Below are positions 28,123 through 47,389 of a stretch of 64,000 nucleotides of DNA, piece by piece. Location: the NCBI GenBank assembly GCA_015064505.1, contig SVSB01000006.1, positions 1,233 to 65,232 on the forward strand, in the 5' to 3' direction. This DNA comes from Oscillospiraceae bacterium (GTDB taxonomy: Bacteria > Bacillota > Clostridia > Oscillospirales > CAG-272). Below the pieces are notes generated by a model. The model made no database searches, was not told the DNA's origin, and saw nothing but the letters and a program-made list of their open reading frames with translations. Every line of letters begins with the position of its first letter. Within the stretch, counting starts at the first letter, position 1. The translations under genes and the position numbers were made by a program.

Positions 28123-28128
28123 AACTGT

Positions 28129-30369
28129 TTACTCCGTATAAAGTTTTTTGTTGCGTTCCGTTTTTTCTTCTCTTACGGCGATAAGGCACATTACGGAACA
28201 CGCCAGAGAGATGCAAAGAAGCGCCGCAACGAATATAATAACGAAGAGCATCGGATCCGCCTTGCTTTGGCTTATTATGGGCATATCGGCAAAGAAGATA
28301 TTGGGAAGCACCCTGTCGCAAAATACCGAAGCGCCCCAAACCGAGGCAAAGCACAATGGCAAGGTAACCGCCGCACACACCCCGAAGAACACGGGAATAT
28401 CCCAAATATGCATTTTTACTATACTTGAATTCGGTGCAAACATTGCCCGAAGCACGGACATCTCCCCCGCCCTTTTGCGGTAGAACAGCGCAAGTGAGTA
28501 AGCAAGAGGCAGAAGCGATATTGCTATCAGAGTAAATCCCGCGCAGATTAGCATCTCCGCCCACCCCTCTGCAGAGTTTTCCGCGTTTTGGGTCTGCTCT
28601 CCCACGTACTCAAGAGTGCCCAGATCCCAGGCGTCGTTAAGAAGGCGGATATTCTGAACGGTATTCAGCTCCTCCGCGTTTTCGGCAAGAGAGATAGAAA
28701 GAGAGTTATGCACGGGTATCTCTCCCGTCACCTGTGAAAACAGCTCGTCGGATACGTACAGAGCAAAGCCCGCATTGGGGGAAGGCGCGTCCTTTACCAC
28801 CGCAACCACGTTAAGCTCCACGGTCTTGTAAATATACTGTTCTGCCATCTGGGATATCTTATATACTCCCGTAGATCCTTCCTCCACCGTACCCCGCGAA
28901 TTGACGTATATCCAAAGTGTAAGCTTATCTCCGGGCCTGAAGCGGAAAGCACGGTCGTTCTCGGCGGTTTCTCCCACTATAACGTCATAACCGCCGCTAA
29001 AGGTCGTTATATCACCTTCAACGGTATAGATGTCCGCAAGGGATGCGGCGGTTGCGGCATCACAGGCGCAAAGACGGAAATAGTCCGTGAGGCTGTGACC
29101 GTCAAGATACGGATTTGCCGCCGCAATACCCACTTTTTTCACCGACGAGCTTTCCATAGAGATCAGATGGGAATAATACCGCGCGTCCTGCTCGGGCACC
29201 GTTTCGCTTACGTGGGCAACTCCCTTTATATCCTTAAGTCCCTTAACGGCTATCTCGTGATCCTCGCCGTTTTCAAGCACGAGAACGTACTCGCTTCCGT
29301 ATTCGCTCATATAATCGCGGCTTTTTTCAAGTGCGCCCGCGCAGGTTACAGCAAAAAAGAAGGCGGCGGCGCAAAGCGCAAAGGAAACGCCTGTGGAAAG
29401 GATGAATTTTCTGAAGCGCCACAGCGATAAAAGCTCGTAATTCTTTGGAAAAGCGTTTCGCACTCCAAGGCTTGAACGGCGTGGGGATGAAGCAAGATCC
29501 GCGCTCTCCTTTGCCGCAAGCAGCTCCGTTGGCTGGACAAGTGACATTGCTCTGGTGCGCAGATATGCCGCACCGAAGGAGGCAAGGCAAACGCAGGGCA
29601 GAACAAGCAGCGCAAGGCGCAGGGCAAGATAGAACGTACCGCCCGCAAGACTTGAGCAGTAATACGCCAGAAGCGCACCGCATACGGCGGCGGGCAGATA
29701 GGTGACGGCAGCACACACTGCAAGCTCAAGTCCCGAGGAAAGGGCAAGTCTGCGCGTATCCGCGCCCCAGGATATGTAAACGCCGAAAACGAATCTTTCC
29801 TGCCTCGTTCTTATGCCGTACAGTATCGCAAGAAACAAAAGGCTGACCCCGAACGCGGCGGCAAATCCGCCCACGGCAACGGGTGCCGTTTCTTTCCATT
29901 TCACGTACAACCTGTATTCGGGGGAATATCTGACGGAAACGTATCCTCCCTGCTCTCCGAAGGCGCCGAGATACCTTTCCGCGTTTGAGGCAAGCACCTC
30001 TCTTGCGTGGATAAGATCTCTTTCCGTAAATCGGAGATAGATATCGTATACCTCCTCGCCGTCCACGGTGCGTTTATCGTAAAAAGCGGTATCGAAAACG
30101 TCCATACCGCCTCTCGGGGGTCTGTATCCCACGAGAAAGCTCTTTTGGGAGGAGTTAAGACCTACGTAGCAGAGATGCCATTCCTTATCCTCCGTTCTGC
30201 CGCCCGAACGGGAAACGAGAGTGCTGTCGTAAGAAAAGGCGACGAGGCACAGAGCCGTCTGAATAATAAAAAGCGCGGCAAAAAAGCACGCGAATTCTCT
30301 TGCACCGCGAAATACTCTGTTTGCCGCAAATGAAATATTCCTTTTTACAGCGGATAGTATTCTCTCCAT
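28129..30369 (-). CDS. FtsX-like ABC permease with duplicated 4-TM modules and large extracytoplasmic domains
   Basis: 746 aa with two clusters of TM helices separated by a long soluble region. It lies immediately upstream of the ATPase gene. Confidence 0.75.
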   Translation of the reverse strand: MERILSAVKRNISFAANRVFRGAREFACFFAALFIIQTALCLVAFSYDSTLVSRSGGRTEDKEWHLCYVGLNSSQKSFLVGYRPPRGGMDVFDTAFYDKRTVDGEEVYDIYLRFTERDLIHAREVLASNAERYLGAFGEQGGYVSVRYSPEYRLYVKWKETAPVAVGGFAAAFGVSLLFLAILYGIRTRQERFVFGVYISWGADTRRLALSSGLELAVCAAVTYLPAAVCGALLAYYCSSLAGGTFYLALRLALLVLPCVCLASFGAAYLRTRAMSLVQPTELLAAKESADLASSPRRSSLGVRNAFPKNYELLSLWRFRKFILSTGVSFALCAAAFFFAVTCAGALEKSRDYMSEYGSEYVLVLENGEDHEIAVKGLKDIKGVAHVSETVPEQDARYYSHLISMESSSVKKVGIAAANPYLDGHSLTDYFRLCACDAATAASLADIYTVEGDITTFSGGYDVIVGETAENDRAFRFRPGDKLTLWIYVNSRGTVEEGSTGVYKISQMAEQYIYKTVELNVVAVVKDAPSPNAGFALYVSDELFSQVTGEIPVHNSLSISLAENAEELNTVQNIRLLNDAWDLGTLEYVGEQTQNAENSAEGWAEMLICAGFTLIAISLLPLAYSLALFYRKRAGEMSVLRAMFAPNSSIVKMHIWDIPVFFGVCAAVTLPLCFASVWGASVFCDRVLPNIFFADMPIISQSKADPMLFVIIFVAALLCISLACSVMCLIAVREEKTERNKKLYTE

Positions 30370-30605
30370 CCGTTCACCGCCCTTTTAATCACTTTACCCA
30401 AGTAAATTCTACAACAATTATATACAGATTTCAACACCCATTTTCGATTATATTTGAACAATGTGTAAATTCCGTGAATTTTTTCAAAAACCACTTGCAT
30501 ATTTGACAAAATCAAGATATAATGGCATACGGAGAAAGTTGGACCAAATTGCAAATAAAGATTGATAAAAAATAAACATTCACATATACAAAAAAAGGAG
30601 AAGCT

Positions 30606-32384
30606 ATGACACAGAACAAGTACATCAACGAGTGGATAGCCGAAATGGCTGCAATGACCACTCCCGACTCCATCGTTTGGATCGACGGCACCGAGGAGCA
30701 GGCAGAAAAGCTCCGCGCAGAGGCTTGCGCTACCGGTGAGATGATCAAGCTCAACGAGGAGCTCCTTCCCAACTGCTACCTCCATCGCACCGCAATAAAC
30801 GACGTTGCGCGCGTTGAGGGCAGAACCTTCATCTGCACCTCCAAGAAGGAGGATGCGGGTAACATCAACAACTGGATGGATCCCAAGGAGTGCTACGAGA
30901 AGCTCTCCAAGCTCTACAAGGGCGCAATGAAGGGACGCACCATGTACGTAATTCCCTACTCCATGGGCGTTGTAGGCTCTGATTTTGCTAGGTACGGCAT
31001 CGAGCTTACCGACTCTATCTACGTTGTTCTTAACATGCTTATCATGACCCGCGTTGGCGTAAACGTTCTCACCGAGCTCGGTGATTCCGCAGACTTCATC
31101 AAGGGTCTTCACGCAAAGGCAGACCTCGACGAGGAGAACCGTTACATCGTTCACTTCCCCGAGGACAACACCATCTGGAGCGTTAACTCCGGCTACGGCG
31201 GAAACGTTCTTCTTGGTAAGAAGTGCTTCGCGCTCCGCATTGCATCCTTCCTTGGCAGAAACGAGGGCTGGATGGCAGAGCACATGCTCATCCTCGGCGT
31301 TGAGTATCCCAACGGAGATATCAAGTACATCACCGCTGCATTCCCCTCTGCTTGCGGTAAGACCAACCTTGCAATGCTCATTCCTCCGGAAATTTACCGC
31401 AAGAAGGGCTACAAGGTATGGTGCGTAGGCGACGATATCGCTTGGCTCCGCGTAGGTAAGGACGGCAGACTCTGGGCAGTTAACCCTGAGAACGGCTTCT
31501 TCGGCGTTGCTCCCGGTACTAACGAGAACTCCAACCCCAATGCACTTCACACCTGTCTCCGCGATACCATCTTTACCAACGTTGTTCACAACCTTGACAA
31601 CAACACCGTTTGGTGGGAAGGTCTTGACAAGAATCCTCCCGCAAACGCTATCGACTGGAAGGGCAACAAGTGGGATTACACCAAGTACAACAAGGCTGAT
31701 AAGTCCACCTGCGGCGCTCATCCCAACTCCCGCTTCACCGCAAGTGCAGCTAACTGCCCCTGCATCTCCTCCGAGTTCAACTCCCTTACCGGTGTTCCCG
31801 TAAGCGCTATCGTATTCGGCGGACGCCGTGCACGTACCGCTCCCCTGGTATACCAGTCCACCTCTTGGCAGAACGGTACCTTCGTTGGTTCCATCATGGC
31901 TTCCGAGACCACCGCAGCCGCTACCGGCGCTGTTGGCGTTGTTCGCCGCGATCCCATGGCTATGCGTCCCTTCGTTGGTTACAATATGGGTGATTACTTC
32001 GCTCACTGGCTCAACATGGGCAAGCGCATCCCCAATCCTCCCAAGATCTTCAACGTTAACTGGTTCCGTACCGACAAGGACGGCAACTTCATCTGGCCCG
32101 GATTCGGCGACAATATGCGCGTTCTTCTCTGGATCCTTGCACGTTGCGAGGGCAAGATCGACGCTGTTGAAACTCCTATCGGTTACGTTCCTCACGCAGA
32201 GGACATCGATATTGAGGGTCTTGACATCACCGTTGACACCGTTCGCGAGCTTCTCTCCGTTGATACCGAGGCATGGCTTGAGGACGTTAAGGGCATCAAG
32301 GAATTCTACGACCTCGTTGGCGAGAGAGTTCCCGCAGAGCTTCACGACGAGCTCAAGGCTCTTGAAGCAAGACTTACCAAGTAA
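30606..32384 (+). CDS. pckG: phosphoenolpyruvate carboxykinase (GTP)
   Basis: 592 aa. The kinase-1a P-loop is FPSACGKTNLAML. WMAEHMLILG and the overall layout are typical of GTP-type PEPCK. The RBS AAAGGAGAA is strong. Confidence 0.9.
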   Translation: MTQNKYINEWIAEMAAMTTPDSIVWIDGTEEQAEKLRAEACATGEMIKLNEELLPNCYLHRTAINDVARVEGRTFICTSKKEDAGNINNWMDPKECYEKLSKLYKGAMKGRTMYVIPYSMGVVGSDFARYGIELTDSIYVVLNMLIMTRVGVNVLTELGDSADFIKGLHAKADLDEENRYIVHFPEDNTIWSVNSGYGGNVLLGKKCFALRIASFLGRNEGWMAEHMLILGVEYPNGDIKYITAAFPSACGKTNLAMLIPPEIYRKKGYKVWCVGDDIAWLRVGKDGRLWAVNPENGFFGVAPGTNENSNPNALHTCLRDTIFTNVVHNLDNNTVWWEGLDKNPPANAIDWKGNKWDYTKYNKADKSTCGAHPNSRFTASAANCPCISSEFNSLTGVPVSAIVFGGRRARTAPLVYQSTSWQNGTFVGSIMASETTAAATGAVGVVRRDPMAMRPFVGYNMGDYFAHWLNMGKRIPNPPKIFNVNWFRTDKDGNFIWPGFGDNMRVLLWILARCEGKIDAVETPIGYVPHAEDIDIEGLDITVDTVRELLSVDTEAWLEDVKGIKEFYDLVGERVPAELHDELKALEARLTK

Positions 32385-32407
32385 TTTTAAAAGATATAGC
32401 ACCGAAA

Positions 32408-32438
32408 ACGGGATGCCGCGCGCGGCATCCCGTTTTTT
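32408..32438 (+). terminator. intrinsic terminator of pckG
   Basis: 13-bp stem ACGGGATGCCGCG/CGCGGCATCCCGT followed by TTTTTT. Confidence 0.85.
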
Positions 32439-32530
32439 GCATAACGCCCCTTGATTACGGCAACTCACCGTAAGAGCCGTTGATTTTTCGGCGTTGTTAT
32501 ATTATGATAAAAGCGCAAGGAGGCGATACC

Positions 32531-32968
32531 GTGAAGATACACATTGAAAAGGACCCGACCTGTAATGAAACGGAAATAATCATCCGTTGCCGCGAGATAG
32601 ATACGGAGCTGCGTGAGCTTATATCGAATATGGGCACGGCGGGAAGGACGGTAGCAGGCGAAAAGGACGGCGAAACGTATTTCATTCCCATATCCGATAT
32701 TTACTATTTTGAAACGGTTGACGGAAAAACGTTCTTTTACACGGAAAACAATACGTACAGATGCGAAACCAAGCTGTACCTGATAGAAGAAAGCCTGAAC
32801 GCCTCATACCTTGCGCGGGTTTCAAAAAGCACTATTGCAAATCTCCGCAAGGTGAGAAGCATAAAGAAGGACAAAAACGCGCGGCTTATCGGAACGTTGA
32901 TAAACGGCGAAAAGATAATCATATCTCGCTTTTACGTTCCCGATATCCGCGAAAAACTGGGGGTGTGA
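32531..32968 (+). CDS. stand-alone LytTR-domain DNA-binding protein
   Basis: Start set at GTG 32531, 7 nt after AAGGAGG. The LytTR pattern is IPISDIYYFETVDGKTFFYTENNTYRCETKLYLIEESL...FARVSKSTIANLRKV. There is no receiver domain. Confidence 0.8.
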   Translation: MKIHIEKDPTCNETEIIIRCREIDTELRELISNMGTAGRTVAGEKDGETYFIPISDIYYFETVDGKTFFYTENNTYRCETKLYLIEESLNASYLARVSKSTIANLRKVRSIKKDKNARLIGTLINGEKIIISRFYVPDIREKLGV

Positions 32969-32970
32969 AT

Positions 32971-33408
32971 ATGCGTAACAAGATACTAAAGTGGATCCAC
33001 GATGCGTTTTTCGCTATGGGAGTGGTTACCTTGCTCACTCTGATACTTTCAAAATTCTACGATAACATCTGCATTCATTTTTTGGAGTGGATGGTGTTGA
33101 CGACGGGTGTCGGCGCGATCATCGAAGGCGTGGTTCACGAATACAGGCTGTTTTCCCAAAAACGTGTTGTTCGCAGCGCAATATTAGGTCTTTTTGTCTC
33201 CGTGTTCTTTCTGCTGACCTTTGATTTTGACCATTATTACCCGGGGATGTCAGATATGAATAACTGGCGGTTGTGGATATCGACCATATTAAGCGTTGTG
33301 CTTGTGGTAGCTACAATCGGAGCCATACAAGACAAGCTGTACGTGAGAAGCCTGAAGAAAATAAACAAAAAGCTTGAGGATATGAACGACTTCAAAGAAG
33401 ATAAATAG
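32971..33408 (+). CDS. small 4-TM membrane protein (DUF3021-like), probable partner of the LytTR protein
   Basis: ATG at 32971 is 2 nt after the LytTR stop. It is 145 aa with four hydrophobic helices. Confidence 0.6.
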   Translation: MRNKILKWIHDAFFAMGVVTLLTLILSKFYDNICIHFLEWMVLTTGVGAIIEGVVHEYRLFSQKRVVRSAILGLFVSVFFLLTFDFDHYYPGMSDMNNWRLWISTILSVVLVVATIGAIQDKLYVRSLKKINKKLEDMNDFKEDK

Positions 33409-33420
33409 ACAAAAGCATCA

Positions 33421-33458
33421 ACCGAAAATCCTTCTCCCGCGGGAGAAGGATTTTCGGT
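33421..33458. terminator. bidirectional terminator
   Basis: Perfect 18-bp stem ACCGAAAATCCTTCTCCC / GGGAGAAGGATTTTCGGT between convergent genes. Confidence 0.8.
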
Positions 33459-33498
33459 TGAAACAAGAATGAAAATGTAATATACCGCGTCTTACGGA

Positions 33499-36400
33499 TT
33501 ATTGGGTCTGCACAGCATCGATCTCATCAATCACACTAAACACTCCGTCACGTTCCACAAGCACCACAATGATTGCCATAGATCGTTTTTCCGCACAGTC
33601 AAATTCAATATAAACGTCCCATACTTTATCCGTGGGAAGTATTCCGAATTCTTCTGATTCAGGCGGATTTTTATACTGAGCCGAAAGCTTTCCCGAATAG
33701 GCATGATCCGCATAGATCTTCAAATTGGAAAACTGTCTTGCGCTCCGTCCGCCTTTTCCGACAACTCGTGTATAGTCACTGTCAGCGCGCAAATGGTGAT
33801 CTATTGCCTGCTCCAACGTTTCGACGGGTATTGGATCAAATCCGAACACGTAGCTGTATTTTCTTATCACAGGTTTGCCTTCAAGGTATATCTTTTCCGT
33901 TAAAAGCCTGTTTTGCTCATCGTAATACTTATAGGGATCAGCAACAAGCTCGCCTTTCTCGTTATAATATTCATACGAGTCCATAAACAAAGCACCTCTG
34001 CTATAATACGACTGTGTACGCTCGTAAACGAGCAAACTGTTTTCGTAATGCTTGGTGATGTGTTCAAAAACGGTAAGCCCGCTCGGACCATACTTGTATT
34101 CGTGGATCTCAACCGCCAGCTCTTCAGCGCCGATAAGCTTACCTATGTTCTCAATGCTTGCGGGCACGATCAAGGTCGTCAGCTTCGTTCCGTAAAACGC
34201 GTTATCGTCGATATACTTAACGCTGTCGGGAAGCGTATATTCGCCCGTTCTTGCAGGCGGGAATGCGACGAGAGTTTCCATATCCTTGGTATAGATCGCG
34301 CCGTCCACGGTAACGTAATTGAGGCTCATATCTTGGAACTCAAACCGTTCCGTTCTGCCGGATATCAAGGTTGGAGAAGCTGCAAAATTAATTTGCTTGT
34401 TCGGAAAAGTGATAACGGTCTGCGGCATATATGAGTGTTCGTTTAAAAACGATTGCAGGTACTCGACGTTTTCTGCGGAAAGCTCCTGCACGTTAACGTA
34501 AAGCTCGCCTTGACCCAATCGGATATTTATTATGTTTCCGGGGGGAGATATCGTTATTACCGTATCATCCCAAGGACTGCCCACGTTTACCGAACGCAAG
34601 ATACCGTCAAGCGTCTCAGGGGAAATACCGATATCCGCATTGAACATCATATACACGTAATAACCGTTATTAAAAACAGCATAACAGTGTACGTGCTCCG
34701 TAACACCCCAATCAGGATAATCGGGAGCCTCTGCGTAAACGTAGTATGCATACGGGTCGCTTTCGGTTCCCTTTTTTTCCGAAACTGCGTTAAGAAGCCC
34801 TCCTCTGTAAGTACGCAACAAATCAAGATTGATTCCGCTTGCTGCGGGAGACATCGTTGTTGCGACTGCAAAATGGATTATTTGACTTCTGGCTGCCGTT
34901 GCGCCGGAAACTGTCCAGGTATTGGGCAGGGAAAGCTTCACCCTGCACTTCACCGTACTGTCCGTGGAGTCCGTCAGATTCATTTCCGTTTGGGTCATTG
35001 CGTTGCTTATCGGTGCACTCTCAAGCTTTTCTGCATTTGTGAATCTTCTATACTGTACCGAGTCCTCCTCAAAATACAAATGGCTCCTGCCTGCGAAGCT
35101 TACGTAACTTAAAGTCACCTTATCACAGGGCTCCCAATCAAGGGAAGCGGGAAGAGAAAACGTGTAATACCAACCGTTCGAATAAATGCGGTATTCTCTT
35201 GCGCTCTTATCCTCGCTGAGATCACCTTTTTTGATGATCACTCCGGTAACTGTGGACGTTTTCACGTCAACCTCGTCAATGGCACGGTATATTCCGGATC
35301 TATCCTTAACGACCACTATGGGAACGGACACGTTACCTTCCCAGCCGCCCCAGAAATCAGCCTTCACAACCGTAACGGAGCTACCGGGTTCAAAACCCAA
35401 TCTCTCCGCAACCGCAGCGTCTTCGTACATCCTGCTTATCTCTTCCGCATCCTCAAACTCGTAATTGATAACAAGATCTCTGTACGTCTTTGGATTTGAT
35501 CCGCCTTTGGCAGGTGTTGTCCACATACTGGTATTTCCAAGCCAATGCTTTACTGCATCCTCAACAGTGTAGATAAGAGACGGAGTCACACCGTCGTGAT
35601 ATACGTACTCCCGTTGTACAGGCTTTCCGTTTTCAAAGTACGTTTCACTTACAACTCTGCCGCTGCCGTCATATTTCTTGGAGGTATACTCCCCTTCCGT
35701 TCCGTCCGCATTATAGTATTGCATATATTCGGAGCTGATACGGTCGTAAGAGCTTGTGTATGCAGTTCGTCTGTAGAAATACTGCAGCACGCCGTCAATG
35801 TAAAAGTACGTTTCGTCAATAGGAACTATCTCGCGGTAATACGTGTATACGTGCTTATGGCATTTTTCATCTACGATTGCCGTAACGGTTTTCTTCACCA
35901 ATTCGCCCAAAACGTTATATTCTTCGATCTCGCTTTTTGCAAGCTTGACTTCAACCCCGTCTGCGCCGTTCAATGCACCAAGGCGCTCGATGCTTGCAGG
36001 CAGGATCAAGGTTGTCAGCTTCGTTCCGTAAAATGCGTTATCGTCGATATACTTAACGCCGTCGGGAAGCGTATATTCCCCTGTTCTTGCAGGTGGGAAT
36101 GCAACGAGAGTTTCCATATCCTTGGTATAGATCGCACCGTCCGACACCGTATATAATATGCAATCGTCAGATACGGCGTACGCCTCGGTTCTGGACGAAA
36201 TAAAGTTGGGAGAATGCATAATGTAGAGGTATTTACTATATAGCGCCAACGTCGGCGGATAAGCAGATTGCACTCCCCAAAAAGAGGAATCGTTAAGGAT
36301 TCCGGCACAAGCGCTTACGTCCTTTTCGTCAAGGGTTATGACGGTAAGGGCAAACTCGTCACTGTTCGACCTGGCACCTATGCTATCACGCGTATGATCC

Positions 36401-39198
36401 GCCTCGATCGATCGCAGTATACTTTCAACCACGGAAAACGGAACATCTGCATAATCCAGGAAAGTTACGGTTACATACCAGCCGTTGCTTTCCACAACGT
36501 ACCGATGAGCATCGTAAGTTGTATACGGAGCGTATTTTTCAGGACTTCGAGTGTGTACATAATATACGAAGGAATCCTCAGCAGTTCCGTATTTTTCTTC
36601 AACTACGGTTACTTCGTATCCGTCACCGACTTTAAACCGTTCGGGTGATATTCCGGCAGTAAAGGGTCTAACGTCGTTTACCTCAAATAGCTTGATATCG
36701 TTTCTTTCCGCAACGCTTCCGGAGAAGGACCAATTTGAAGGAAGCTTAAGAGAGATAGGAAAGTTGGATACAGAGATATACTCACGGATATTGACGTTGC
36801 ACTGATGCTCGGCCATTGTATCCGCCTCGGCACCGCTCTCGTGACTAACCACGTTTACCGTGATATTCTCATCGTCCCAACCGAAGATCGGGTTGCCCTT
36901 AAACGTTACGGTTACGAGATCTCCAACGGAAAGCTTCGTTTCAACGGGAGAATAAAAGCGGTAATACAGCAATCCCGACTTAAGCAGATAATAGCGATAT
37001 CTGCCGTCCTCCGAAAGCTCGCAAATATCAGCGACCGCACCCTGCTTTTCAACGTTTGGATAATCGATCTCAACGTTCACCCCCGAAATCCGTCCCACTA
37101 TCTTTGAAGAATCGGGAACTATCAGCTTCGTCAGCTTGCTGTTATAAAATGCATTCTCGGCTATTTGCTCTACCGACTCCGGAAGAACAAACTCACCCGT
37201 TCTTGCAGGCGGGAAAGCAACGAGAGTTTTCATATCCTTTGTGTAAAGCACGCCGTCTACAGCGGCATACTTTATACAATCCTCCGTCACGGAGAAACCG
37301 AGAACGTCCTCGGATATTTTTGCGGGCGCACCGGATATAACAAGATACTTGTTATTGAAGTTGACGTAATTGATTGTAAATTCGTAATACGCTCCGCTTC
37401 TTATGCGATTCAGATATTCCACAACGTCATCATTCAAATTTATAACGTCGACATTGTAGGTGAAATTATTTGATTGCAATGCCGCCATATCACTGATACC
37501 GTTTTCATTTCCGTTGAACACTCGCACCGACTTAAGCACGCAGTCAAACTCAGTGATATCAACAACGGTATCGGTATAAAAGCAAACACTTAAGTTATAC
37601 CCTTGGCAAGTAACAACAAAGCTGTATTTGTGTCCGTTTTTATTTTTTGAATGACACAAAAATGCAAAGCTGTCGTTTTCGCCGCCCGTTTTCTCCTCAA
37701 CCTTTATTTCTGCAGGCTCAAAGGTCTTTTCGAACTCGCTTGTGTCTATACCAAGCACCAAAGGCCATGCTCGTATGAAGGAAAACACCGTTTTGCCGTT
37801 CAGGGTTGCAACGTCCCCATCAAAAGACCATTCTTCGGGAACCGTGATGCCTATCTTCATTTCAGTTGAAGTATAATCCTTCAGCTTGTTTTCAAAGCAT
37901 CTTTCTATCATTCCGTCAACCGCAGGCGGCTCATCCGTATCGGCGGGAACCGTAGTCTCAACGGGCTCCGTTGTATCGGGTGCGTCTGTGATATCGGGGG
38001 CATCCGTATCGGTGCCGTCCGTGGTATCGGCAACGTCAGTTGTGCCTGCAGGCTCGGGCGGGGTCTGTCTTGCATTGGTAAGCAGGCAAACTGATGCGGT
38101 GATGATCACGGCAACGGCAATCACGCAGGCAAGGGCAGTTGGCTTCTTCATACGGAGCACGCCCTTGATGCGGCTCTTTATGCTACTTTCTCCAAAGGAG
38201 AGCATACCGTGGAAGGGCACCTTACTGCCGCCCACGGACATATTGAGCAGAGTGCGCGCGTACTCCTTGCGCACCTCAAGATCGTAGGTATCTATGGCCC
38301 TTTCGTCGCAGGAAAGCTCCATATCAACGGTCATCAGCTTAAATGCAAGCCACGCAAAGGGATTGAACCAATGCACGCAAAGAATAAGAGATGCTATGGC
38401 CTTTATAATATGATCTCCGCGCTTTACGTGAGTTCTTTCGTGGGCAACCACGTAAGCAAATTCCTTATCTTCAAGGCCGAATGGCAGATATATCTTCGGC
38501 TTTATATAGCCGAAAACGAAGGGCACGTCGATCTGACCGTTTGAATAAAGTCCATCGCCGATCTTATAGGAAAATTGAACCGCGCTTTTGGTTGCCGCAT
38601 AGGAATATGAAAGGTAGCAAAGCATACCTATCACACCCGTTGCCCAGATAGCGCAGGCGGCACGCCATAGAGTGACCGCCCTGCTTGTTTCCGCCAGAAC
38701 GGGGTCTTCGGTTTTCCCCGCTTCGTCAGTATCCGAGGGGACGTCGGTATCATCGGGCAAGTCGGTTATTACGGGGGCAACGACGGGGTCCGTTATCGGC
38801 TGAGTCATTATTTCGGCGGTATATACGGAGCCCGTGTATTGAGGCATCCCTTCCCCCGTGAGGTAGCCGTCGGGAACGCTATCAAAATACCCGTCAAAAT
38901 CCGTTACGGGCTCGGTTACGGGATCCGTAAAGATATCTTCGGTAATTACGGGAGCTTCAGTCGTATCCGCAGGGGTAACCACCGCCGCGTGCTGCTCGGG
39001 CAGATGAATAAAGTTAAAAACGCTGACGGGTGCTTCCACCGCAAAGGGCAAGAGCAATCTTATTGCGGGAATTATCCACAGAACGTACGAGTATTTACGG
39101 GGCAGTCTTTTCATAAAAAGCCTGATGATCGCAACGAAGGCGATTATCACCGCGCCCGTTATGCTCATATTGAGGATAGTTTCGAAGATCTTGAGCAT
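33499..39198 (-). CDS. M56 (BlaR1/MecR1-type) membrane metalloprotease fused to a ~1,500-aa repetitive LRR-containing ectodomain
   Basis: 1,899 aa. N-terminal TM helices are followed by the zinc motif HERTH (nt 38428-38442) in the context FAYVVAHERTHVKRGDH, then a TM helix at about aa 355-380. After that come a Pro/Thr/Asp linker and three tandem super-modules with BspA-type LRR segments. The start is 1 nt after the blaI-like stop. Confidence 0.8.
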   Translation of the reverse strand: MLKIFETILNMSITGAVIIAFVAIIRLFMKRLPRKYSYVLWIIPAIRLLLPFAVEAPVSVFNFIHLPEQHAAVVTPADTTEAPVITEDIFTDPVTEPVTDFDGYFDSVPDGYLTGEGMPQYTGSVYTAEIMTQPITDPVVAPVITDLPDDTDVPSDTDEAGKTEDPVLAETSRAVTLWRAACAIWATGVIGMLCYLSYSYAATKSAVQFSYKIGDGLYSNGQIDVPFVFGYIKPKIYLPFGLEDKEFAYVVAHERTHVKRGDHIIKAIASLILCVHWFNPFAWLAFKLMTVDMELSCDERAIDTYDLEVRKEYARTLLNMSVGGSKVPFHGMLSFGESSIKSRIKGVLRMKKPTALACVIAVAVIITASVCLLTNARQTPPEPAGTTDVADTTDGTDTDAPDITDAPDTTEPVETTVPADTDEPPAVDGMIERCFENKLKDYTSTEMKIGITVPEEWSFDGDVATLNGKTVFSFIRAWPLVLGIDTSEFEKTFEPAEIKVEEKTGGENDSFAFLCHSKNKNGHKYSFVVTCQGYNLSVCFYTDTVVDITEFDCVLKSVRVFNGNENGISDMAALQSNNFTYNVDVINLNDDVVEYLNRIRSGAYYEFTINYVNFNNKYLVISGAPAKISEDVLGFSVTEDCIKYAAVDGVLYTKDMKTLVAFPPARTGEFVLPESVEQIAENAFYNSKLTKLIVPDSSKIVGRISGVNVEIDYPNVEKQGAVADICELSEDGRYRYYLLKSGLLYYRFYSPVETKLSVGDLVTVTFKGNPIFGWDDENITVNVVSHESGAEADTMAEHQCNVNIREYISVSNFPISLKLPSNWSFSGSVAERNDIKLFEVNDVRPFTAGISPERFKVGDGYEVTVVEEKYGTAEDSFVYYVHTRSPEKYAPYTTYDAHRYVVESNGWYVTVTFLDYADVPFSVVESILRSIEADHTRDSIGARSNSDEFALTVITLDEKDVSACAGILNDSSFWGVQSAYPPTLALYSKYLYIMHSPNFISSRTEAYAVSDDCILYTVSDGAIYTKDMETLVAFPPARTGEYTLPDGVKYIDDNAFYGTKLTTLILPASIERLGALNGADGVEVKLAKSEIEEYNVLGELVKKTVTAIVDEKCHKHVYTYYREIVPIDETYFYIDGVLQYFYRRTAYTSSYDRISSEYMQYYNADGTEGEYTSKKYDGSGRVVSETYFENGKPVQREYVYHDGVTPSLIYTVEDAVKHWLGNTSMWTTPAKGGSNPKTYRDLVINYEFEDAEEISRMYEDAAVAERLGFEPGSSVTVVKADFWGGWEGNVSVPIVVVKDRSGIYRAIDEVDVKTSTVTGVIIKKGDLSEDKSAREYRIYSNGWYYTFSLPASLDWEPCDKVTLSYVSFAGRSHLYFEEDSVQYRRFTNAEKLESAPISNAMTQTEMNLTDSTDSTVKCRVKLSLPNTWTVSGATAARSQIIHFAVATTMSPAASGINLDLLRTYRGGLLNAVSEKKGTESDPYAYYVYAEAPDYPDWGVTEHVHCYAVFNNGYYVYMMFNADIGISPETLDGILRSVNVGSPWDDTVITISPPGNIINIRLGQGELYVNVQELSAENVEYLQSFLNEHSYMPQTVITFPNKQINFAASPTLISGRTERFEFQDMSLNYVTVDGAIYTKDMETLVAFPPARTGEYTLPDSVKYIDDNAFYGTKLTTLIVPASIENIGKLIGAEELAVEIHEYKYGPSGLTVFEHITKHYENSLLVYERTQSYYSRGALFMDSYEYYNEKGELVADPYKYYDEQNRLLTEKIYLEGKPVIRKYSYVFGFDPIPVETLEQAIDHHLRADSDYTRVVGKGGRSARQFSNLKIYADHAYSGKLSAQYKNPPESEEFGILPTDKVWDVYIEFDCAEKRSMAIIVVLVERDGVFSVIDEIDAVQTQ
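34168..34306 (-). repeat. intragenic repeat copy A (LRR segment of super-module 3)
   Basis: This 139-bp segment differs from 36004-36142 at 8 positions in my manual alignment (about 94 percent identity). Confidence 0.8.
36004..36142 (-). repeat. intragenic repeat copy B (LRR segment of super-module 2)
   Basis: It matches 34168-34306. Both encode DGAIYTKDMETLVAFPPARTGEYTLPD.VKYIDDNAFYGTKLTTLI. A more diverged third copy lies near 37140-37270. Confidence 0.8.
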
Positions 39199-39199
39199 A

Positions 39200-39556
39200 T
39201 TATTTATCCTCCGTGTATTCGTCTATCAGCCGCTTAAGCTCCTCCGCCTCCGTTTTTGATATCTTCTCCTTTGAGAGAAACGCAGTCAAAAACATGGGCA
39301 GCGAGCCGCCGAAGCCTCGGTTGATAAGGGTTTCCGATCTTTCGTTAAGAACGTCGTCGTGGCGGTACAATGCGCTTATAACGCTGTCCTCGTTTTTTAT
39401 TATATTCTTGTCAACAAGATGCTTTACCACCGTATACACGGTGGATTTTTTCCACCCAAGCTTTTCGCCCGCAAGAGTGACGAGCCTGCCCGATCGCAGG
39501 GGCTCGTTTTCCCATATTATATCGAGCAGCTCAAGCTCGCTGTTTGATACTTTCAT
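39200..39556 (-). CDS. BlaI/MecI/CopY family transcriptional repressor
   Basis: 118 aa. The winged-helix N-terminus is ELELLDIIWENEPLRSGRLVTLAGEKLGWKKSTVYTVVKHLVDKNII. The C-terminal part is a dimerisation helix. RBS is AAAGGAGG. Confidence 0.85.
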   Translation of the reverse strand: MKVSNSELELLDIIWENEPLRSGRLVTLAGEKLGWKKSTVYTVVKHLVDKNIIKNEDSVISALYRHDDVLNERSETLINRGFGGSLPMFLTAFLSKEKISKTEAEELKRLIDEYTEDK

Positions 39557-39570: not shown

Positions 39571-39627
39571 GGTCTATACGTGTAGACCTCCCGTGTTTAG
39601 TCTATCATAATAGACCAAATTTGTCAA
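39571..39627 (-). promoter_or_regulatory. promoter of the blaI-like operon with two operator-like dyads
   Basis: Minus strand reads TTGACA (39622-39627), a 17-nt spacer, then TAGACT (39599-39604). Dyad 2, GTCTAT-N4-ATAGAC (39600-39615), lies between the -35 and -10 elements. Dyad 1, GGTCTA-N6-TAGACC (39571-39588), lies between the promoter and the RBS. Confidence 0.6.
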
Positions 39628-39812
39628 CAGTTTCAAATTACAGAAAATATTAGATTTTCAGGAATTCAAGTTTAATTTTATATAATATTGTTGACTTATC
39701 CTCCCCTATTTGTTATAAGATACATAACTCAAAAAAAGGATGGTTTGCACAGGGCAAATACATCCGCCTTTTCGGAAAGACAACTGGCGCGTGACACGCC
39801 CCGGAGGAAGTT

Positions 39813-42080
39813 ATGGAAGAAACTAAAGTACAGTTTCAGACAAACGTTGAGCTGCCGCAGGAGGTTATTACCCGTATAACCGATGCCGCAAAAGGAGAAA
39901 AGGTGCTGTTCGCCGTCGCCGCTGACCTTACTATGGAAGCGCGATTCGGCAAGGCATTTCTCTCCGCCACAGACAAGGCGATCTACTCGTTTACCGACGG
40001 GGATGCCGAGCCTATGCGCTTGGAATACTCGGAATTTGAGAAGTGCTTTGTCAAGAGATGCTACGGAAATGCGTTACTGAGGATCCGCAGGACGGAGGAT
40101 GCCGAGCCCGAGAACGTTATCCGCTTCTCGCTGAAGGTCGCATCCCTTTTCGATGCCGTTGCCATTTTCTGCGAGAGAATGCACGAAGGCGCCGACCCCA
40201 CCGAGGTGGTACCGATAGTGGAGGATGCGTTCATAAAGCAGAAATCCGTTTGCCCCAAGTGCGGAAGAACTCTTCTCCGCCCCGGCGCGGATTGCATCTA
40301 CTGCTCCTCCAAGGGCAGGTTCTTCAAGACCATCGTAAAGTACGTAATGCCCCATAAGTGGACGTTGCTGTTCTGCATGTTCCTTTCGGCGTTTACTACC
40401 GCACTTTCCCTTATCTCCCCCTATATGAACAAGACCCTTGTGGACGAGGTATTCCCCAACAAGGATCATAAGCTTCTGCTCACCGTTGTTATCACGCTGC
40501 TCGTAGCGCATATTCTGCAGCACGCCGTGGGTATTCTTCGTTCTTACAATTTGAGAATATGCGGCGATAAGATAGTAAAGAGCTTCAGAAGCGATATATA
40601 TAAAAAGGCGCAGTATCTTCCCATGCGCTTCTACGACCGCACCTCCACCGGTAGCGTTATCAACCGTATAAGCGGTGATACCTCCACCATTCAGGCGTTT
40701 ATGCTCCGCATAACCCAGGAGGTAATAGTTCAGCTCTTCCTGCTCGTGGGCATTGTCATCATAATGCTTTCAATGAACTGGAAGCTGACCCTTCTCTCTC
40801 TTATTCCCGTTCCCTTCGTGGTTATGGGTGCAAGAATATTTGGAAGAAAGATACGCCCCTTCTACGTTAAGATCTGGCGCCGTTGGTCTGCCGTTACCTC
40901 CATACTGACGGACACCCTGCCCGGTATCCGAGTTATCAAGGCGTTCACCAATGAAAAAAAGACCATCGGCAACTTTGATTACTACAACGAGGAATGGCTC
41001 AAGACCGATATCAAGAGCGCACGTATCACCATTACCTTCCCCCATATCACCTCGTTCCTTATCAGCTGCGGCTCGCTTCTTATATGGCTTATCGGCGGTG
41101 CTCAGGTAATCGAGGGATCCGGCGAGATCACCGCAGGTCTGCTTATTTCATTTATCTCCTACACGGGCACCTTCTACGGACCCGTAAACTTCTTTGCAAA
41201 TCTTAACGATTCCTTCCAGCACACCCTTGCGGCAGCGGAAAGGATCATGGATATACTTGACGCAGAACCCGAGCACGATTTCTCGGGCGGCGATCATCCC
41301 AAGAACATCAAGGGTAAGATCGAGTTCCGCAACGTCAACTTTTCCTTTGACCGTTCAAAGAAGACCCTTTCCAATATCAACTTCGTAATCGAGCCCGGCG
41401 AGACCGTTGGTATCGTGGGTACCACGGGATCGGGCAAATCAACGCTTATCAACCTGCTGATGCGCTATTACGACGGCTACGACGGCGAGATACTGATGGA
41501 TGACATTGACATCCGCAATATCGATATGACCTTCTACCGCTCCAAGATCGGCTACGTACAGCAGGAACCCATGATGTTCCACGACACCATATTCAATAAC
41601 ATTGCGTACGGCGCCGACGATCCCAGCCCCGAGCAGGTAATTCACGCGGCAGACGTAGCAAACGCACACGAGTTCATTGCCCGTATGCCCGATGCGTACG
41701 ATACGGTACTCGGAGAGCGCGGAACGGGTATATCCGGCGGTGAAAAGCAGCGTCTTTCCATTGCCCGCGCGGTGCTGAAGAACCCCAGCGTCCTGTTCTT
41801 TGACGAGGCTACCGCATCCGTTGACTCGGAGACCGAGAGCCTTATTCAGGCGGCTATTGACCGCCTTATCAGCGGCAGAACCACCATCATGATAGCTCAC
41901 CGTCTTTCCACCCTGCGCAGGGCAACGAAGATAATCGTTGTTGACAAGGGCGAGATACTTGAGATGGGTTCTCCCGAAGAGCTTATGGCACTTAAGGGCA
42001 AGTACTACAAGCTGGTACAGATCCAGACCATGAGCGAGGAAGCCGAAAAGAACCGCAAAGAAGAGCGATTTGAGGGTTAA
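39813..42080 (+). CDS. ABC exporter (fused TMD-NBD) with an extra ~170-aa N-terminal cytoplasmic domain and a zinc-ribbon
   Basis: 755 aa. The N-terminal domain ends with CPKCGRTLLRPGADCIYC. A six-helix exporter TMD follows. The NBD has GTTGSGKST, ISGGEKQRLSIARA and VLFFDEATASVD. Confidence 0.85.
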   Translation: MEETKVQFQTNVELPQEVITRITDAAKGEKVLFAVAADLTMEARFGKAFLSATDKAIYSFTDGDAEPMRLEYSEFEKCFVKRCYGNALLRIRRTEDAEPENVIRFSLKVASLFDAVAIFCERMHEGADPTEVVPIVEDAFIKQKSVCPKCGRTLLRPGADCIYCSSKGRFFKTIVKYVMPHKWTLLFCMFLSAFTTALSLISPYMNKTLVDEVFPNKDHKLLLTVVITLLVAHILQHAVGILRSYNLRICGDKIVKSFRSDIYKKAQYLPMRFYDRTSTGSVINRISGDTSTIQAFMLRITQEVIVQLFLLVGIVIIMLSMNWKLTLLSLIPVPFVVMGARIFGRKIRPFYVKIWRRWSAVTSILTDTLPGIRVIKAFTNEKKTIGNFDYYNEEWLKTDIKSARITITFPHITSFLISCGSLLIWLIGGAQVIEGSGEITAGLLISFISYTGTFYGPVNFFANLNDSFQHTLAAAERIMDILDAEPEHDFSGGDHPKNIKGKIEFRNVNFSFDRSKKTLSNINFVIEPGETVGIVGTTGSGKSTLINLLMRYYDGYDGEILMDDIDIRNIDMTFYRSKIGYVQQEPMMFHDTIFNNIAYGADDPSPEQVIHAADVANAHEFIARMPDAYDTVLGERGTGISGGEKQRLSIARAVLKNPSVLFFDEATASVDSETESLIQAAIDRLISGRTTIMIAHRLSTLRRATKIIVVDKGEILEMGSPEELMALKGKYYKLVQIQTMSEEAEKNRKEERFEG

Positions 42081-42090
42081 GGAGGCTATT

Positions 42091-42579
42091 ATGAACAGAC
42101 TTTACGTTGACAGTAACAACGCAAAATTCAAAAGACGCAGTCTTACCACGGTGGATATGGAGCTTTTCGACGGCACGGTAATAGAAAACCTTGAGCCACG
42201 CCGCCTGTTCCCCATCAGCGGACAGACCAGATATATCTCCCTGCTTGACAGCGATCTTAACGAAAAAGGGCTTATAAGAAATCTTGACGAGCTTATCCCC
42301 GCAGACAAAAAGCTTATCCTTGAATGCCTTGCGGAATATTATCTGATCCCGGTTATTACAAGGATAAACAATATTGACGACCAACGCAGCAAGATAATCT
42401 TCGACGTGGAGACCGACAGAGGACACAGAATACTTGAAATAACCCATCTCGTGCATCAGGTCAAGCTGCTTCACGACAAGCGCGTTCTTTTCAGAGATGC
42501 AAACGACAACCGCTTTGAGATCCCCGACATAAACGCACTTGATAAGCGCAGCCGCACAGCCCTTGACTTTTACCTGTAA
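42091..42579 (+). CDS. DUF1854 family protein
   Basis: Start set at ATG 42091 behind AAGGAGG. As far as I remember the family, MNRLYVDSNNAKFKRRSLTTVDMELFDGTVIENLEPRRLFPIS matches DUF1854. Those proteins are typically encoded next to this type of ABC exporter. Confidence 0.6.
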   Translation: MNRLYVDSNNAKFKRRSLTTVDMELFDGTVIENLEPRRLFPISGQTRYISLLDSDLNEKGLIRNLDELIPADKKLILECLAEYYLIPVITRINNIDDQRSKIIFDVETDRGHRILEITHLVHQVKLLHDKRVLFRDANDNRFEIPDINALDKRSRTALDFYL

Positions 42580-42606
42580 AACAAATCCAATCTTATAGGA
42601 GGAAAT

Positions 42607-42933
42607 ATGAAGCTCGTACTTGCTATTGTAAACAATGATGACAGCACCGTTGCCGCTTCCGCTCTTACAAGCGCCGGATTCTTCGTTACCCGTCTTTCCA
42701 CCACCGGCGGTTTTCTGATGGTCGGCAACACAACTCTGCTTATAGGAACAGAGGATGAATCCGTCAGCGAGGTTATGGAGATTCTGCACAAGCACTGCGT
42801 AACGAGGACGCAGAAGTCCACCCCCAACGCATCCTTCGGGCAAGGTCTTAACCACGGCAGTCTGCCCCGTGAGGTAAAGGTGGGCGGCGCAACCGTATTC
42901 GTTCTCAACGTTGAGGACGTAAAAAAGCTTTAA
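42607..42933 (+). CDS. darA: cyclic-di-AMP receptor, PII-like (DarA/PstA, YaaQ family)
   Basis: 108 aa. MKLVLAIVNNDDS...FFVTRLSTTGGFLMVGNTTLLIGTED...VKVGGATVFVLNVE closely parallels B. subtilis YaaQ/DarA as I recall it. Confidence 0.8.
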   Translation: MKLVLAIVNNDDSTVAASALTSAGFFVTRLSTTGGFLMVGNTTLLIGTEDESVSEVMEILHKHCVTRTQKSTPNASFGQGLNHGSLPREVKVGGATVFVLNVEDVKKL

Positions 42934-43220: not shown

Positions 43221-44549
43221 TCATTTTGCATATCGCAAGATAGTCACAAGATCTGCATTGTCAACCTTGCCGTCACCGTTAACGTCAACGGAAACGGTCT
43301 TTTTATCCCACAGAGCCCCCGTTTTTGCAAGATGCGAGCAAAGCAGCTCCGCATCCTTTGCATCAACTATGCCGTTTCTGTCTATATCACAGAGCACCTC
43401 TCTTTCATCTCCCGACATACCCGAATATACGGGGATAAGGAACGTAAAAGCTCCGTACTTTATCCCTGCCGCAGAATAAGCCGCAGAAACGGAGCCGCTT
43501 TCCGTATACGCACCCATAACGTTTTGCATATACTGACCCCAGAAGTTACGGCGGGAGCGGGGATCAACGTTGAATTTTTGCAGATATAAGGTATTCTGAT
43601 AATCGTCTATATACTTATTTTTCAGGCAAAGAGCGCCTCCGTATATACCCTTCCAATCCGTGTTCCAGGATGCGCCGCCCCATTCGCCCGCTTTTTCCGC
43701 CGTTCCCTGCCTTGCAGTATTCATTCCCCCAAGGTAAATATTAAAAAGCCCCGTACCGCTTGCGCCGATATTAAAAAAGTTGTATAGTCCGTCGTAGCTC
43801 TTAAGCTCCGATTCGGTGTATCCCGACGAGGGAGCGGCAACAAGCCCGCGCTCGTCTCTCTGTACTCCGTTTTTATAGTACTGTGCAAGCACGGTACCGC
43901 AGCTGCCACCCGATAAGGGCGAGCCGCCAACCCCCTGCTCAAGCCTTATTCTTGCCGCAAGAAAGGGCGCGGATATACCAAGCTCCGCTCCTATTTCCGC
44001 AAGATAACGGGCAACGGTCTTGCCGTTTGAAAGCGTAAGCTTTTCCATAAAAGTTCCCTTGAGTATGGAAGCGCATATCTGCTCCGCCTCCGTGATTTGC
44101 ATAGCCGCGGAAATATCCTCGAACATAAATATACGCTCGCCATCAAGAAAATTGCGCGGGTCAAGAAAATAACGCACCGCTTCGTCGCTTGCGCTGTACC
44201 AGCCGCCGTCGTATATAGCGCCAAGAGAATTATCCCTGTACTTGCTGTATGCGGCAGAAGGAGAAACGAGATTCGTTTCGGGATCTTCCGTTTCCTTTGT
44301 TAAAACGTATGTAAAGGTATAGCCTGAAGACATCGCCGAAATATTAAGAGGAACGAAGCGCCAGGCGGGATAATCATTACGAAGCGCGGAGAGCTTATGG
44401 GCATAGGATGGCGGAAAACCTGCCTCCAAAAGCTCGCCAAAGCTGTCTGCGGCCGTAACCGCACGTGCCGATGTAAAGAAAATGCCAAATGAAAGCACCG
44501 CCGCAAAGGCTGACCTTACGGCAGTGCGAAGAAGTGATCCTGCGTTCAT
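43221..44549 (-). CDS. secreted GH73-like N-acetylglucosaminidase (peptidoglycan hydrolase) with a C-terminal type-I dockerin
   Basis: It has a signal peptide. The GH73-like core has FLAARIRLEQG, YNFFNIGA and LYLQKFN. The C-terminal duplicated calcium-binding segments are DIDRNGIVDAKDAELL and DVNGDGKVDNADLVTILRYA. Confidence 0.7.
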   Translation of the reverse strand: MNAGSLLRTAVRSAFAAVLSFGIFFTSARAVTAADSFGELLEAGFPPSYAHKLSALRNDYPAWRFVPLNISAMSSGYTFTYVLTKETEDPETNLVSPSAAYSKYRDNSLGAIYDGGWYSASDEAVRYFLDPRNFLDGERIFMFEDISAAMQITEAEQICASILKGTFMEKLTLSNGKTVARYLAEIGAELGISAPFLAARIRLEQGVGGSPLSGGSCGTVLAQYYKNGVQRDERGLVAAPSSGYTESELKSYDGLYNFFNIGASGTGLFNIYLGGMNTARQGTAEKAGEWGGASWNTDWKGIYGGALCLKNKYIDDYQNTLYLQKFNVDPRSRRNFWGQYMQNVMGAYTESGSVSAAYSAAGIKYGAFTFLIPVYSGMSGDEREVLCDIDRNGIVDAKDAELLCSHLAKTGALWDKKTVSVDVNGDGKVDNADLVTILRYAK

Positions 44550-44645
44550 AAATACCGTCCTTTCTGTGGCATCATTCTACCACGGCAAGGGGTGGTTTTC
44601 AACGCACAAAATTTGGTAACGGAAAGGGCAACGGGTAATTAGCTA

Positions 44646-44674
44646 TTGACAAAAATAGCTTTCAATGATAAAAT
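44646..44674 (+). promoter_or_regulatory. rnpB promoter
   Basis: TTGACA (44646-44651), a 17-nt spacer, then TAAAAT (44669-44674), with an extended -10 TG at 44666-44667. Confidence 0.65.
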
Positions 44675-44679
44675 TTAAT

Positions 44680-45058: not shown

Positions 45059-45094
45059 AAAAAAACAGCGGCTCGCGCCGCTGTTTTTTTATTT
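45059..45094. terminator. bidirectional intrinsic terminator (rnpB and the convergent SGNH gene)
   Basis: A-run, then ACAGCGGC-TCGC-GCCGCTGT (45065-45084), then a T-run. Confidence 0.85.
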
Positions 45095-45098
45095 TGTA

Positions 45099-47171: not shown

Positions 47172-47187
47172 ATTTTATTCCTTTCGT

Positions 47188-47218
47188 AAAAAAGGGAGGA
47201 CGGCACGCGCCGTCCTCC
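47188..47218 (-). terminator. intrinsic terminator after the small ORF
   Basis: Minus strand has GGAGGACGGC-GCGT-GCCGTCCTCC followed by CUUUUUU. Confidence 0.8.
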
Positions 47219-47233
47219 TTAAATAAACGGCAA

Positions 47234-47377: not shown

Positions 47378-47389
47378 TATATAACCTCC

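Follow-up and report, generated by a model that had tools for sequence, protein, structure and literature searches.

Organization of the blaI-M56 Operon

The DNA analyzed here is a 64,000-nucleotide (nt) stretch from an uncultured Oscillospiraceae bacterium (assembly GCA_015064505.1, contig SVSB01000006.1), referred to below as the window. Its minus strand carries a gene for a BlaI/MecI/CopY-family repressor of 118 amino acids (aa) (positions 39200..39556) followed by a gene for an M56 (BlaR1-family) membrane metalloprotease with a giant ectodomain (33499..39198; 1,899 aa plus stop), the latter identified as an open reading frame (ORF) with a Pfam match. An original prediction, made from the sequence alone, had placed both ORFs at these positions and 1 nt apart. 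Both placements hold: the M56 ORF runs for 5,700 nt without an internal stop codon, and the gene junction reads GAT AAA TAA T ATG. Because only 1 nt separates the repressor stop from the M56 ATG, with a GGAGGA ribosome-binding site upstream, the two genes are translationally coupled. Orthologous loci show the same gene arrangement.

A consensus scan places the operon promoter at 39599..39627 on the minus strand, where TTGACA and a TG-extended TAGACT are separated by a 17-nt spacer (10/12 consensus matches, with TG preceding the -10 hexamer). The promoter hexamers are invariant in the orthologous loci L001-L003. Two conserved putative operator dyads (GGTCTA-N6-TAGAC) are exact matches to GTCTA-N6-TAGAC. 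Dyad 1 (GGTCTATTATGATAGACT; 39599..39616, minus strand) overlaps the -10 hexamer; across four loci its half-sites do not change, and a single position of the spacer does. Dyad 2 (GGTCTACACGTATAGACC; 39571..39588, minus strand) lies between the promoter and the ribosome-binding site, and has half-sites that are invariant among orthologues around a variable 6-nt spacer. In L002 and L003, dyad 2 contains TACAAATGTA, which we take to be the classical BlaI/CopY core. The window holds two dyad matches in all, both at the promoter of the blaI-M56 operon itself. At the other end, an intrinsic terminator with a 20-base-pair (bp) stem, a 4-nt loop and a T-rich tail (33418..33461, minus strand) begins ~38 nt past the M56 stop. 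Given this strong terminator and the convergent orientation of the next genes, the operon is bicistronic, and it is presumably autorepressed.

The Repressor and the Membrane Protease Unit

The winged-helix repressor matches Penicillinase_R (PF03965), a profile of a winged helix plus a dimerization domain, over its full length (aa 4-113 against profile positions 2-115 of 115; E=3.8e-21, 76 bits against a cut-off of 22.6), which bears out its earlier assignment as BlaI-type. It aligns with the MecI and BlaI crystal structures 1sd6, 1okr, and 1sd4, and is 88-92% identical among orthologous loci.

The first ~380 aa of the M56 protein had been described as BlaR1/MecR1-like, and the Peptidase_M56 profile had been named as the comparison to make. 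The match to that profile is strong (PF05569; E=3.3e-49, 168 bits against a cut-off of 31), and the description agrees as well with the presence of a closing transmembrane (TM) helix and with alignments to Staphylococcus aureus BlaR1 (8exp, 8exs), in which HERTH (aa 253-257) pairs with HEYAH, and DMELSCDE with DNEVEAD. Across an alignment of 28 homologues, H253, E254, H257, E294, the HWFNP motif, and F335/R343/K345 are invariant, and all of the protease-core residues considered, including the SFGES-IK-RIK loop to which F335, R343, and K345 belong, are invariant or at least 90% conserved. This loop aligns with the autocleavage loop of BlaR1, which holds F284, the residue mutated in 8exs.

When aa 1-425 are modeled with AlphaFold2 (mean predicted local distance difference test score, pLDDT, of 74.8, and >90 in the core), helices form at aa 2-28, 34-49, 173-207, and 355-373, and the protease core falls between the third and fourth of them. 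Searched against the Protein Data Bank (PDB) with Foldseek, this N-terminal model returns BlaR1 cryo-EM entries alone at probability 1.0, with a TM-score of 0.58 to the TM/protease structure 8exr_A. The model thus predicts a BlaR1-like fold with four TM helices and the protease core between TM3 and TM4. TM1 and TM2, joined by a short basic turn (MKRLPRK), occupy aa 1-60 (39019..39198, minus strand) as judged by hydropathy, charge distribution, and the model, in which both helices exceed a pLDDT of 90. TM3, the gluzincin core, and TM4 occupy aa 173-376 (38071..38682, minus strand), an assignment drawn from the BlaR1 alignment, conservation, and Foldseek. The basic turns MKRLPRK and RMKKP both fall on the predicted cytoplasmic side.

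Between TM2 and TM3 lies an acidic loop rich in Pro, Thr, and Asp (aa 61-172; 38683..39018, minus strand) with 21% D+E, 27% P+T, and a net charge of -23. Because of this charge and composition, and because the loop is modeled as disordered (pLDDT<50), it should be extracellular. The original prediction had noted it as an unusual insertion of ~130 aa; its place and acidic P/T/D-rich character stand, its length is closer to 112 aa, and, since homologues possess this variable loop too, it is an expanded form rather than a unique insertion. The loop is 48-54% identical among orthologues, against 82-89% for the M56 core. A Pro/Thr/Asp-rich linker (aa 377-428; 37915..38070, minus strand; 25% T, 21% D, 17% P; pLDDT<50) follows TM4 and probably spans the cell wall.

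A Modular Ectodomain Without a Penicillin-Binding Fold

Beyond the linker, the protein continues for ~1,470 aa. Tiled self-comparison, used since a whole-protein self-BLAST gave the identity match alone, resolves this ectodomain into four domain types: a PsbP-like domain (A), a short BspA-type leucine-rich repeat (LRR) domain (B), an oligonucleotide/oligosaccharide-binding (OB)-like barrel (C), and a YD-like sheet with a tail (D), arranged as A-B-C / A-B-D-C / A-B-D. The three tandem super-modules of the original prediction are therefore real as a triplication, although they are uneven in size. Super-module 1 (aa 429-792; 36823..37914, minus strand) comprises A at ~443-564, B at ~583-708 and C at ~713-790, defined by internal similarity, a match to the A profile, and LRR_5, with folds assigned by homology to the modeled module 2. 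Super-module 2 (aa 793-1419; 34942..36822, minus strand) comprises A at ~811-937, B at ~940-1095, D at ~1101-1311, and C at ~1312-1400. Super-module 3 (aa 1420-1899; 33502..34941, minus strand) comprises A at ~1415-1544, B at ~1557-1702, and D at ~1706-1899; its assignment rests on internal similarity and the A-profile match, and its order is backed by the homologue P0121. Compared pairwise, the modules share 25-35% identity over most of their parts, rising to 52-77% within the LRR core.

Module 2 contains all four domain types, and an AlphaFold2 model of it (aa 790-1419, built from a 36-row alignment) has a mean pLDDT of 83.8. The Foldseek output came without query ranges, and matches were assigned to A-D by aligned length and secondary-structure order. 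On this basis A resembles PsbP-like structures (1v2b, 4rth, 2xb3, and 9grx_0; probability 1.0, target TM-score ~0.45-0.5), B the BspA-type LRR proteins PcpA (4cp6) and EUBVEN_01088 (4h09) (probability 1.0), and C OB-fold proteins (probability 1.0). Domain D is modeled as a run of long beta-hairpins forming a YD-like sheet, with a helical/beta tail, and has weak matches to Rhs shells (probability 0.16-0.41); RHS_repeat (PF05593) has no Pfam match in the M56 protein at E<=1 and a faint one in the orthologue P0002. A YD-like segment had been predicted in modules 2 and 3 only, in accord with the self-comparison.

The BspA-type LRRs predicted for every super-module are likewise present, as three LRR_5 (PF13306) stretches (E=3.1e-16, 59.9 bits against a cut-off of 27.7), and LRR proteins alone are matched when the ectodomain sequence is searched against the PDB. 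"LRR ectodomain" is nevertheless too narrow a name. The LRR part amounts to ~150 aa per module, with about one canonical LRR_5 unit in each B, and the most widely shared element of the ectodomain is domain A, which had been noted merely as a motif.

A penicillin-binding protein (PBP)-like domain had not been seen by eye, and the profile and structure comparisons agree. Pfam finds no transpeptidase or beta-lactamase family in the M56 protein at E<=1; the NCBIfam model blaR1_generic matches aa 219-374 alone (84.7 bits against a cut-off of 400); and no PBP or beta-lactamase fold is among the 50 best Foldseek matches listed for the module 2 model. Because modules 1 and 3 share the domain types of module 2, these types explain the ectodomain in full, and a penicillin-binding fold is not among them. 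No carbohydrate-binding module (CBM) or other recognized carbohydrate-binding domain was found in the M56 protein.

The best-conserved stretch of the ectodomain, in all copies and in orthologues, is the LRR core DGAIYTKDMETLVAFPPARTGEYTLP..VKYIDDNAFYGTKLT. Within the window gene this core also underlies the sole DNA-level repeat, whose longest form is ~157-183 nt at 88-93% identity; the 157-nt, 93% identical copies lie at 34150-34306 and 35986-36142, and encode the LRR cores of B3 and B2. Over 52 codons, B2 and B3 differ at 11 nt and 2 aa. Since 9/11 of these differences are synonymous, the core appears to be under purifying selection, and recent gene conversion was rejected as the source of the repeat on the same grounds. 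The repeat is a plausible substrate for recombination of modules between strains.

Module Shuffling Among Orthologues

Same-locus orthologues differ in module number and order over a length range of 1,094 to 2,036 aa. The window protein (1,899 aa) reads A-B-C-A-B-D-C-A-B-D, P0001 (2,036 aa) D-C-A-B-D-C-A-B-C-A-B, P0003 (1,094 aa) A-B-C-A-B, and P0002 (1,906 aa) ?-D-C-D-C-A-B-C-A. The extracellular parts diverge faster than the M56 core. No orthologue lacks domain A, and only P0005 is without an A-B pair. P0001, which comes from another assembly, repeats the A-B-D-C-A-B order of the window protein. A partial protein of another metagenome-assembled genome (MAG), P0121, has C2-A3-B3 in the same order; it matches window aa 1290-1697 at 95% identity, after which its next module is C and not the D3 of the window protein. 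This substitution of C for D3 argues for recent module exchange. The contig L086 was rejected as independent support for the assembly, its DNA being 100% identical to the window over 11 kb.

The window protein stands at the extreme of its size range. Among the 80 best relatives in species-representative genomes (71 complete genes), the median length is 678 aa, and of the complete genes 1/71 reaches 1,000 aa and none 1,500 aa. The closest of these relatives, from an uncultured Eubacteriales MAG, is 69% identical, and BlaI is encoded immediately upstream in 75/80. A clade consisting of giants only had been suggested by an initial set of 120 best homologues, all >1,000 aa, and was rejected on this independent scan; the first search had been preselected by shared words, which favors long proteins. 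A homologue search with module 2 returned almost nothing beyond close relatives and generic LRR proteins, which indicates that domains C and D are rare; this search was not exhaustive, missing P0001 and P0002. At a separate locus (L088 2113-10746), two BlaI-M56 pairs with M56 proteins of 763 aa and 1,581 aa stand in tandem directly after a resolvase gene, an arrangement which suggests that BlaI-M56 pairs can be duplicated or mobilized as cassettes.

Domain A Is Shared With Anti-Sigma-Like Proteins

When 1.84 billion representative proteins were searched exhaustively with a domain A profile, 71 clusters matched at E<=1e-3. No Pfam family covers the domain, and 1/31 members touches PsbP_2 (E=0.026). 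The likeness of the modeled domain to the PsbP/Mog1-like alpha/beta sandwich is accordingly one of fold rather than of family membership, and domain A is a new, small, undescribed PsbP-like family. An M56 N-terminus is present in 33/71 matches, ~10 of the 71 resemble small lipoproteins, and 7/71 begin MNKHEFKSAY... and continue with one TM helix at ~aa 60-85.

The MNKHEFKSAY genes that were looked up (3/3) overlap by 4 nt the end of a gene for a 162-aa extracytoplasmic function (ECF) sigma factor. These pairs, each consisting of the sigma factor and a single-pass A-domain protein of 1,000-1,200 aa, lie at L005 4516-8681, L091 2516-6249, and L092 2516-6048. A glycoside hydrolase (GH) gene is found near each of the three (GH9+CBM3, GH26, and GH5), and the single-pass proteins are candidate polysaccharide-sensing anti-sigma factors. 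One of them also has an SBP_bac_8 domain. Occurrence on two different transmembrane signaling scaffolds is the behavior expected of an extracytoplasmic sensor module, and this sharing offers the best, if indirect, argument that the ectodomain of the window protein is an input device. A literature search for PsbP-like domains with anti-sigma factors, or for M56 proteins with LRRs, returned nothing specific.

Comparison With Known BlaI/BlaR Systems

Like the S. aureus BlaI/BlaR1 and MecI/MecR1 systems (8exp-8ext, 1sd4, 1okr), the window locus combines a repressor and an M56 sensor-protease in one operon. It shares with BlaR1 the four-TM topology, a gluzincin core between TM3 and TM4 with HExxH and Glu, a conserved loop at the position of the autocleavage loop, and palindromic operators, putative here, over its own promoter. 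In contrast to the S. aureus systems, the window protein lacks a C-terminal penicillin-binding sensor, no beta-lactamase or PBP2a gene is linked, the repressor gene precedes the protease gene, the TM2-TM3 loop has expanded to ~112 acidic, disordered residues, and the ectodomain measures ~1,470 aa rather than the ~250 aa of BlaR1/MecR1.

A recent survey found a transpeptidase domain in only ~6% of ~15,000 M56 proteins. It recorded 254 domain architectures, the commonest being M56 with a C-terminal region without a recognized domain, and placed ~96% of the proteins within five genes of a BlaI-like gene; its authors view BlaI/BlaR (BlaIR) systems as general signal transducers (Kurtz et al., 2026; PMC13492132). 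Another sensor-less pair, PvmSR of Pseudomonas aeruginosa, has been described in a preprint (bioRxiv 10.64898/2026.08.03.742534). The original prediction had taken the window protein to be an exceptional rewiring in which the beta-lactam sensor was replaced. Because so few M56 proteins carry a transpeptidase domain, and given the P. aeruginosa pair, the lack of a penicillin sensor is the rule rather than a rewiring event, and that claim is not supported. The locus fits the non-canonical BlaIR class, defined by an M56 protein without a transpeptidase domain and a BlaI-like repressor, alongside Clostridioides difficile CenIR (PMC13492132), mycobacterial BlaIR, and PvmSR, with which it also shares the lack of a link to beta-lactam resistance. 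Whereas those systems have short, mostly unstructured C-terminal tails or none, the window protein has a large, folded, modular ectodomain. A literature search for M56 proteins with LRR or PsbP-like ectodomains found none. What is new here is the size, the module shuffling, and domain A; the missing penicillin sensor is ordinary.

Two further comparisons concern the extracellular modules. The B modules match the same LRR_5 profile and fold as PcpA (4cp6) and EUBVEN_01088 (4h09), but differ from these proteins in being short (~150 aa), in always following a PsbP-like domain, and in being fused to a signaling protease. The RsgI-SigI systems of cellulolytic clostridia are membrane signal transducers with interchangeable extracellular binding modules. 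The window protein likewise carries interchangeable extracellular modules in fibre-degrading Clostridia; the likeness is an analogy only. The output of RsgI-SigI is release of a sigma factor, whereas that of the window system would be proteolysis of a repressor by M56.

A Model for Ligand Sensing and Its Alternatives

We consider it probable that the locus is a self-contained, autoregulated, regulated-proteolysis switch of the BlaI/BlaR family that senses an extracellular ligand through its modular ectodomain. By analogy with the known systems, a repressor dimer resting on both dyads would shut off its own operon together with any unlinked genes that share the dyad. The A-B modules, which the acidic PT-rich loop and the linker would lift through the cell wall, would then bind a ligand outside the cell, probably a macromolecule (a protein or glycan), and this binding would activate the membrane protease. 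Cleavage of the repressor by the activated protease would derepress the operon and the other dyad-bearing genes. That the ligand is macromolecular or cell-surface, as the original prediction had also proposed, is plausible.

Several observations weigh against this model. First, no other promoter within the 64 kb carries the dyad, and neighboring genes are not conserved among the more distant giant M56 proteins; with the dyad at the operon's own promoter only, no output beyond autoregulation is therefore visible. Second, the scissile bond in the dimerization helix of S. aureus BlaI/MecI, which we take to be Asn-Phe (N101-F102), corresponds to Ala-Phe in the window repressor (FLTA/FLSKE against LVLN/FVEKE), so that Phe is kept and Asn is replaced by Ala. 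Third, relaxed constraint, or pressure from immunity or phages, could explain why the ectodomain diverges so fast, with no need for shifts in ligand specificity. Finally, adhesins just as typically contain LRR, YD-like, and OB-like modules.

One alternative sees the protein chiefly as a membrane-anchored adhesin or surface array. Its ectodomain would then be the output of the system instead of the input, with BlaI and M56 only tuning its dosage through autoregulation. The resemblance of the BspA-type LRR, YD-like, and OB-like modules to surface proteins such as PcpA, the strain-variable and recombining character of the ectodomain, which recalls surface antigens, and the confinement of the dyads within the window to a bicistronic operon with its own terminator would all suit such a protein. 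The invariance of the catalytic residues and regulatory loop across the clade, together with the almost constant linkage to BlaI, nevertheless indicates that the proteolytic switch is in use, and the presence of domain A on ECF anti-sigma-like proteins associates it with signaling rather than with adhesins. We therefore regard this alternative as unlikely.

A second alternative, which we hold to be improbable, is that the TM/protease unit or the acidic loop senses an envelope or membrane cue, while the ectodomain plays an accessory part, for example as a wall or polymer tether, and has no role in gating the protease. Short-tailed BlaR-like proteins have been proposed to sense in this way, short or unstructured tails suffice for many M56 proteins, and P0003 manages with about half the modules of the window protein, module content not being conserved. 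A dispensable tether is harder to reconcile with the LRR core, which is the best-conserved part of the ectodomain and in which the B2/B3 differences are mostly synonymous, as this indicates a maintained LRR binding function; nor would it explain the retention of A in every orthologue and of an A-B pair in all but one. That the long ORF is an assembly artefact, or conceals a cryptic beta-lactam-binding domain, is highly improbable: the sequence is metagenomic with internal repeats and its only identical second contig is not independent, but those repeats are short and too diverged for collapse to be likely, the frame is open throughout, the module junctions recur in P0001 and P0121, and none of the four modeled domain types brought a PBP or beta-lactamase into the Foldseek matches listed.

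Within the preferred model of a ligand-sensing proteolytic switch, a more specific proposal can be put forward tentatively. The ectodomain may be a recombining, strain-specific receptor array in which A is a hitherto unrecognized extracytoplasmic sensor module common to BlaR-type proteases and ECF anti-sigma factors of fibre-degrading Clostridia, and the switch may report contact with a polymer or surface (plant cell wall, neighbor cell, or phage). If this were so, the locus would be a BlaIR counterpart of the RsgI-SigI biomass-sensing systems. BlaIR-type switches are only just being seen as a broad signaling family that is not specific to beta-lactams; a ligand of domain A, if identified, would be among the first defined inputs of a non-beta-lactam BlaIR system. 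Because its ectodomain is large and well folded, the locus is experimentally tractable, and with its orthologues it offers natural same-locus module-swap variants and a clear putative operator for reporter design. Domain A, with 71 clusters, two scaffolds, and a glycoside hydrolase near three anti-sigma-like loci, is a concrete candidate sensor module.

Genomic Neighborhood

No beta-lactamase or low-affinity PBP target gene is linked to the operon within ~10 kb, where the neighbors encode ATP-binding cassette (ABC) transporters, a DUF1854 protein, a cyclic-di-AMP (c-di-AMP) receptor, a LytTR protein, a dockerin protein, and unknowns. Upstream, on the plus strand, lie a fused ABC exporter (755 aa), DUF1854, and a PstA/DarA-type c-di-AMP receptor (39813-42933), which could form a c-di-AMP-linked export system. 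This cluster is always divergent to the blaI-M56 operon in close orthologues, and the dyads adjoin blaI, ~200 bp from the exporter start. Of the giant M56 genes examined at greater distance, 2/3 have BlaI upstream, and no other neighbors are shared. A conserved regulon read from the neighbors was accordingly rejected, the exporter/DUF1854/receptor synteny being confined to close orthologues.

The 5' leader of the divergent exporter operon (39690-39812, plus strand) is almost invariant across orthologous loci and has two predicted hairpins just before the ribosome-binding site (z = -2.1). The intergenic region has no match in Rfam, and the leader may be an undescribed cis-regulatory RNA.

Downstream, convergent to the M56 gene, a gene for a LytTR-domain protein and a 145-aa gene without assigned function (32480-33408, plus strand) form a pair that is kept in L002, L003, and L086; the LytTR-domain protein is 154 aa as called in L086, and the window ORF is 162 aa from a TTG start. 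Beyond this pair, on the minus strand, are an ABC ATPase, a 746-aa FtsX-type permease, and an adjoining 707-aa protein without a Pfam match (27442-32468). Two further minus-strand regions (43221-50044 and 58287-63602) hold genes of the fibre-degrader type: a 442-aa dockerin protein, a 690-aa GDSL esterase with an extensin-like Pro-rich region, an 884-aa protein without a Pfam match, and a 1,771-aa GH43/DUF1565 protein. The dockerin, GH43, and GDSL genes point to a fibre-degrading member of the Clostridia as the host.

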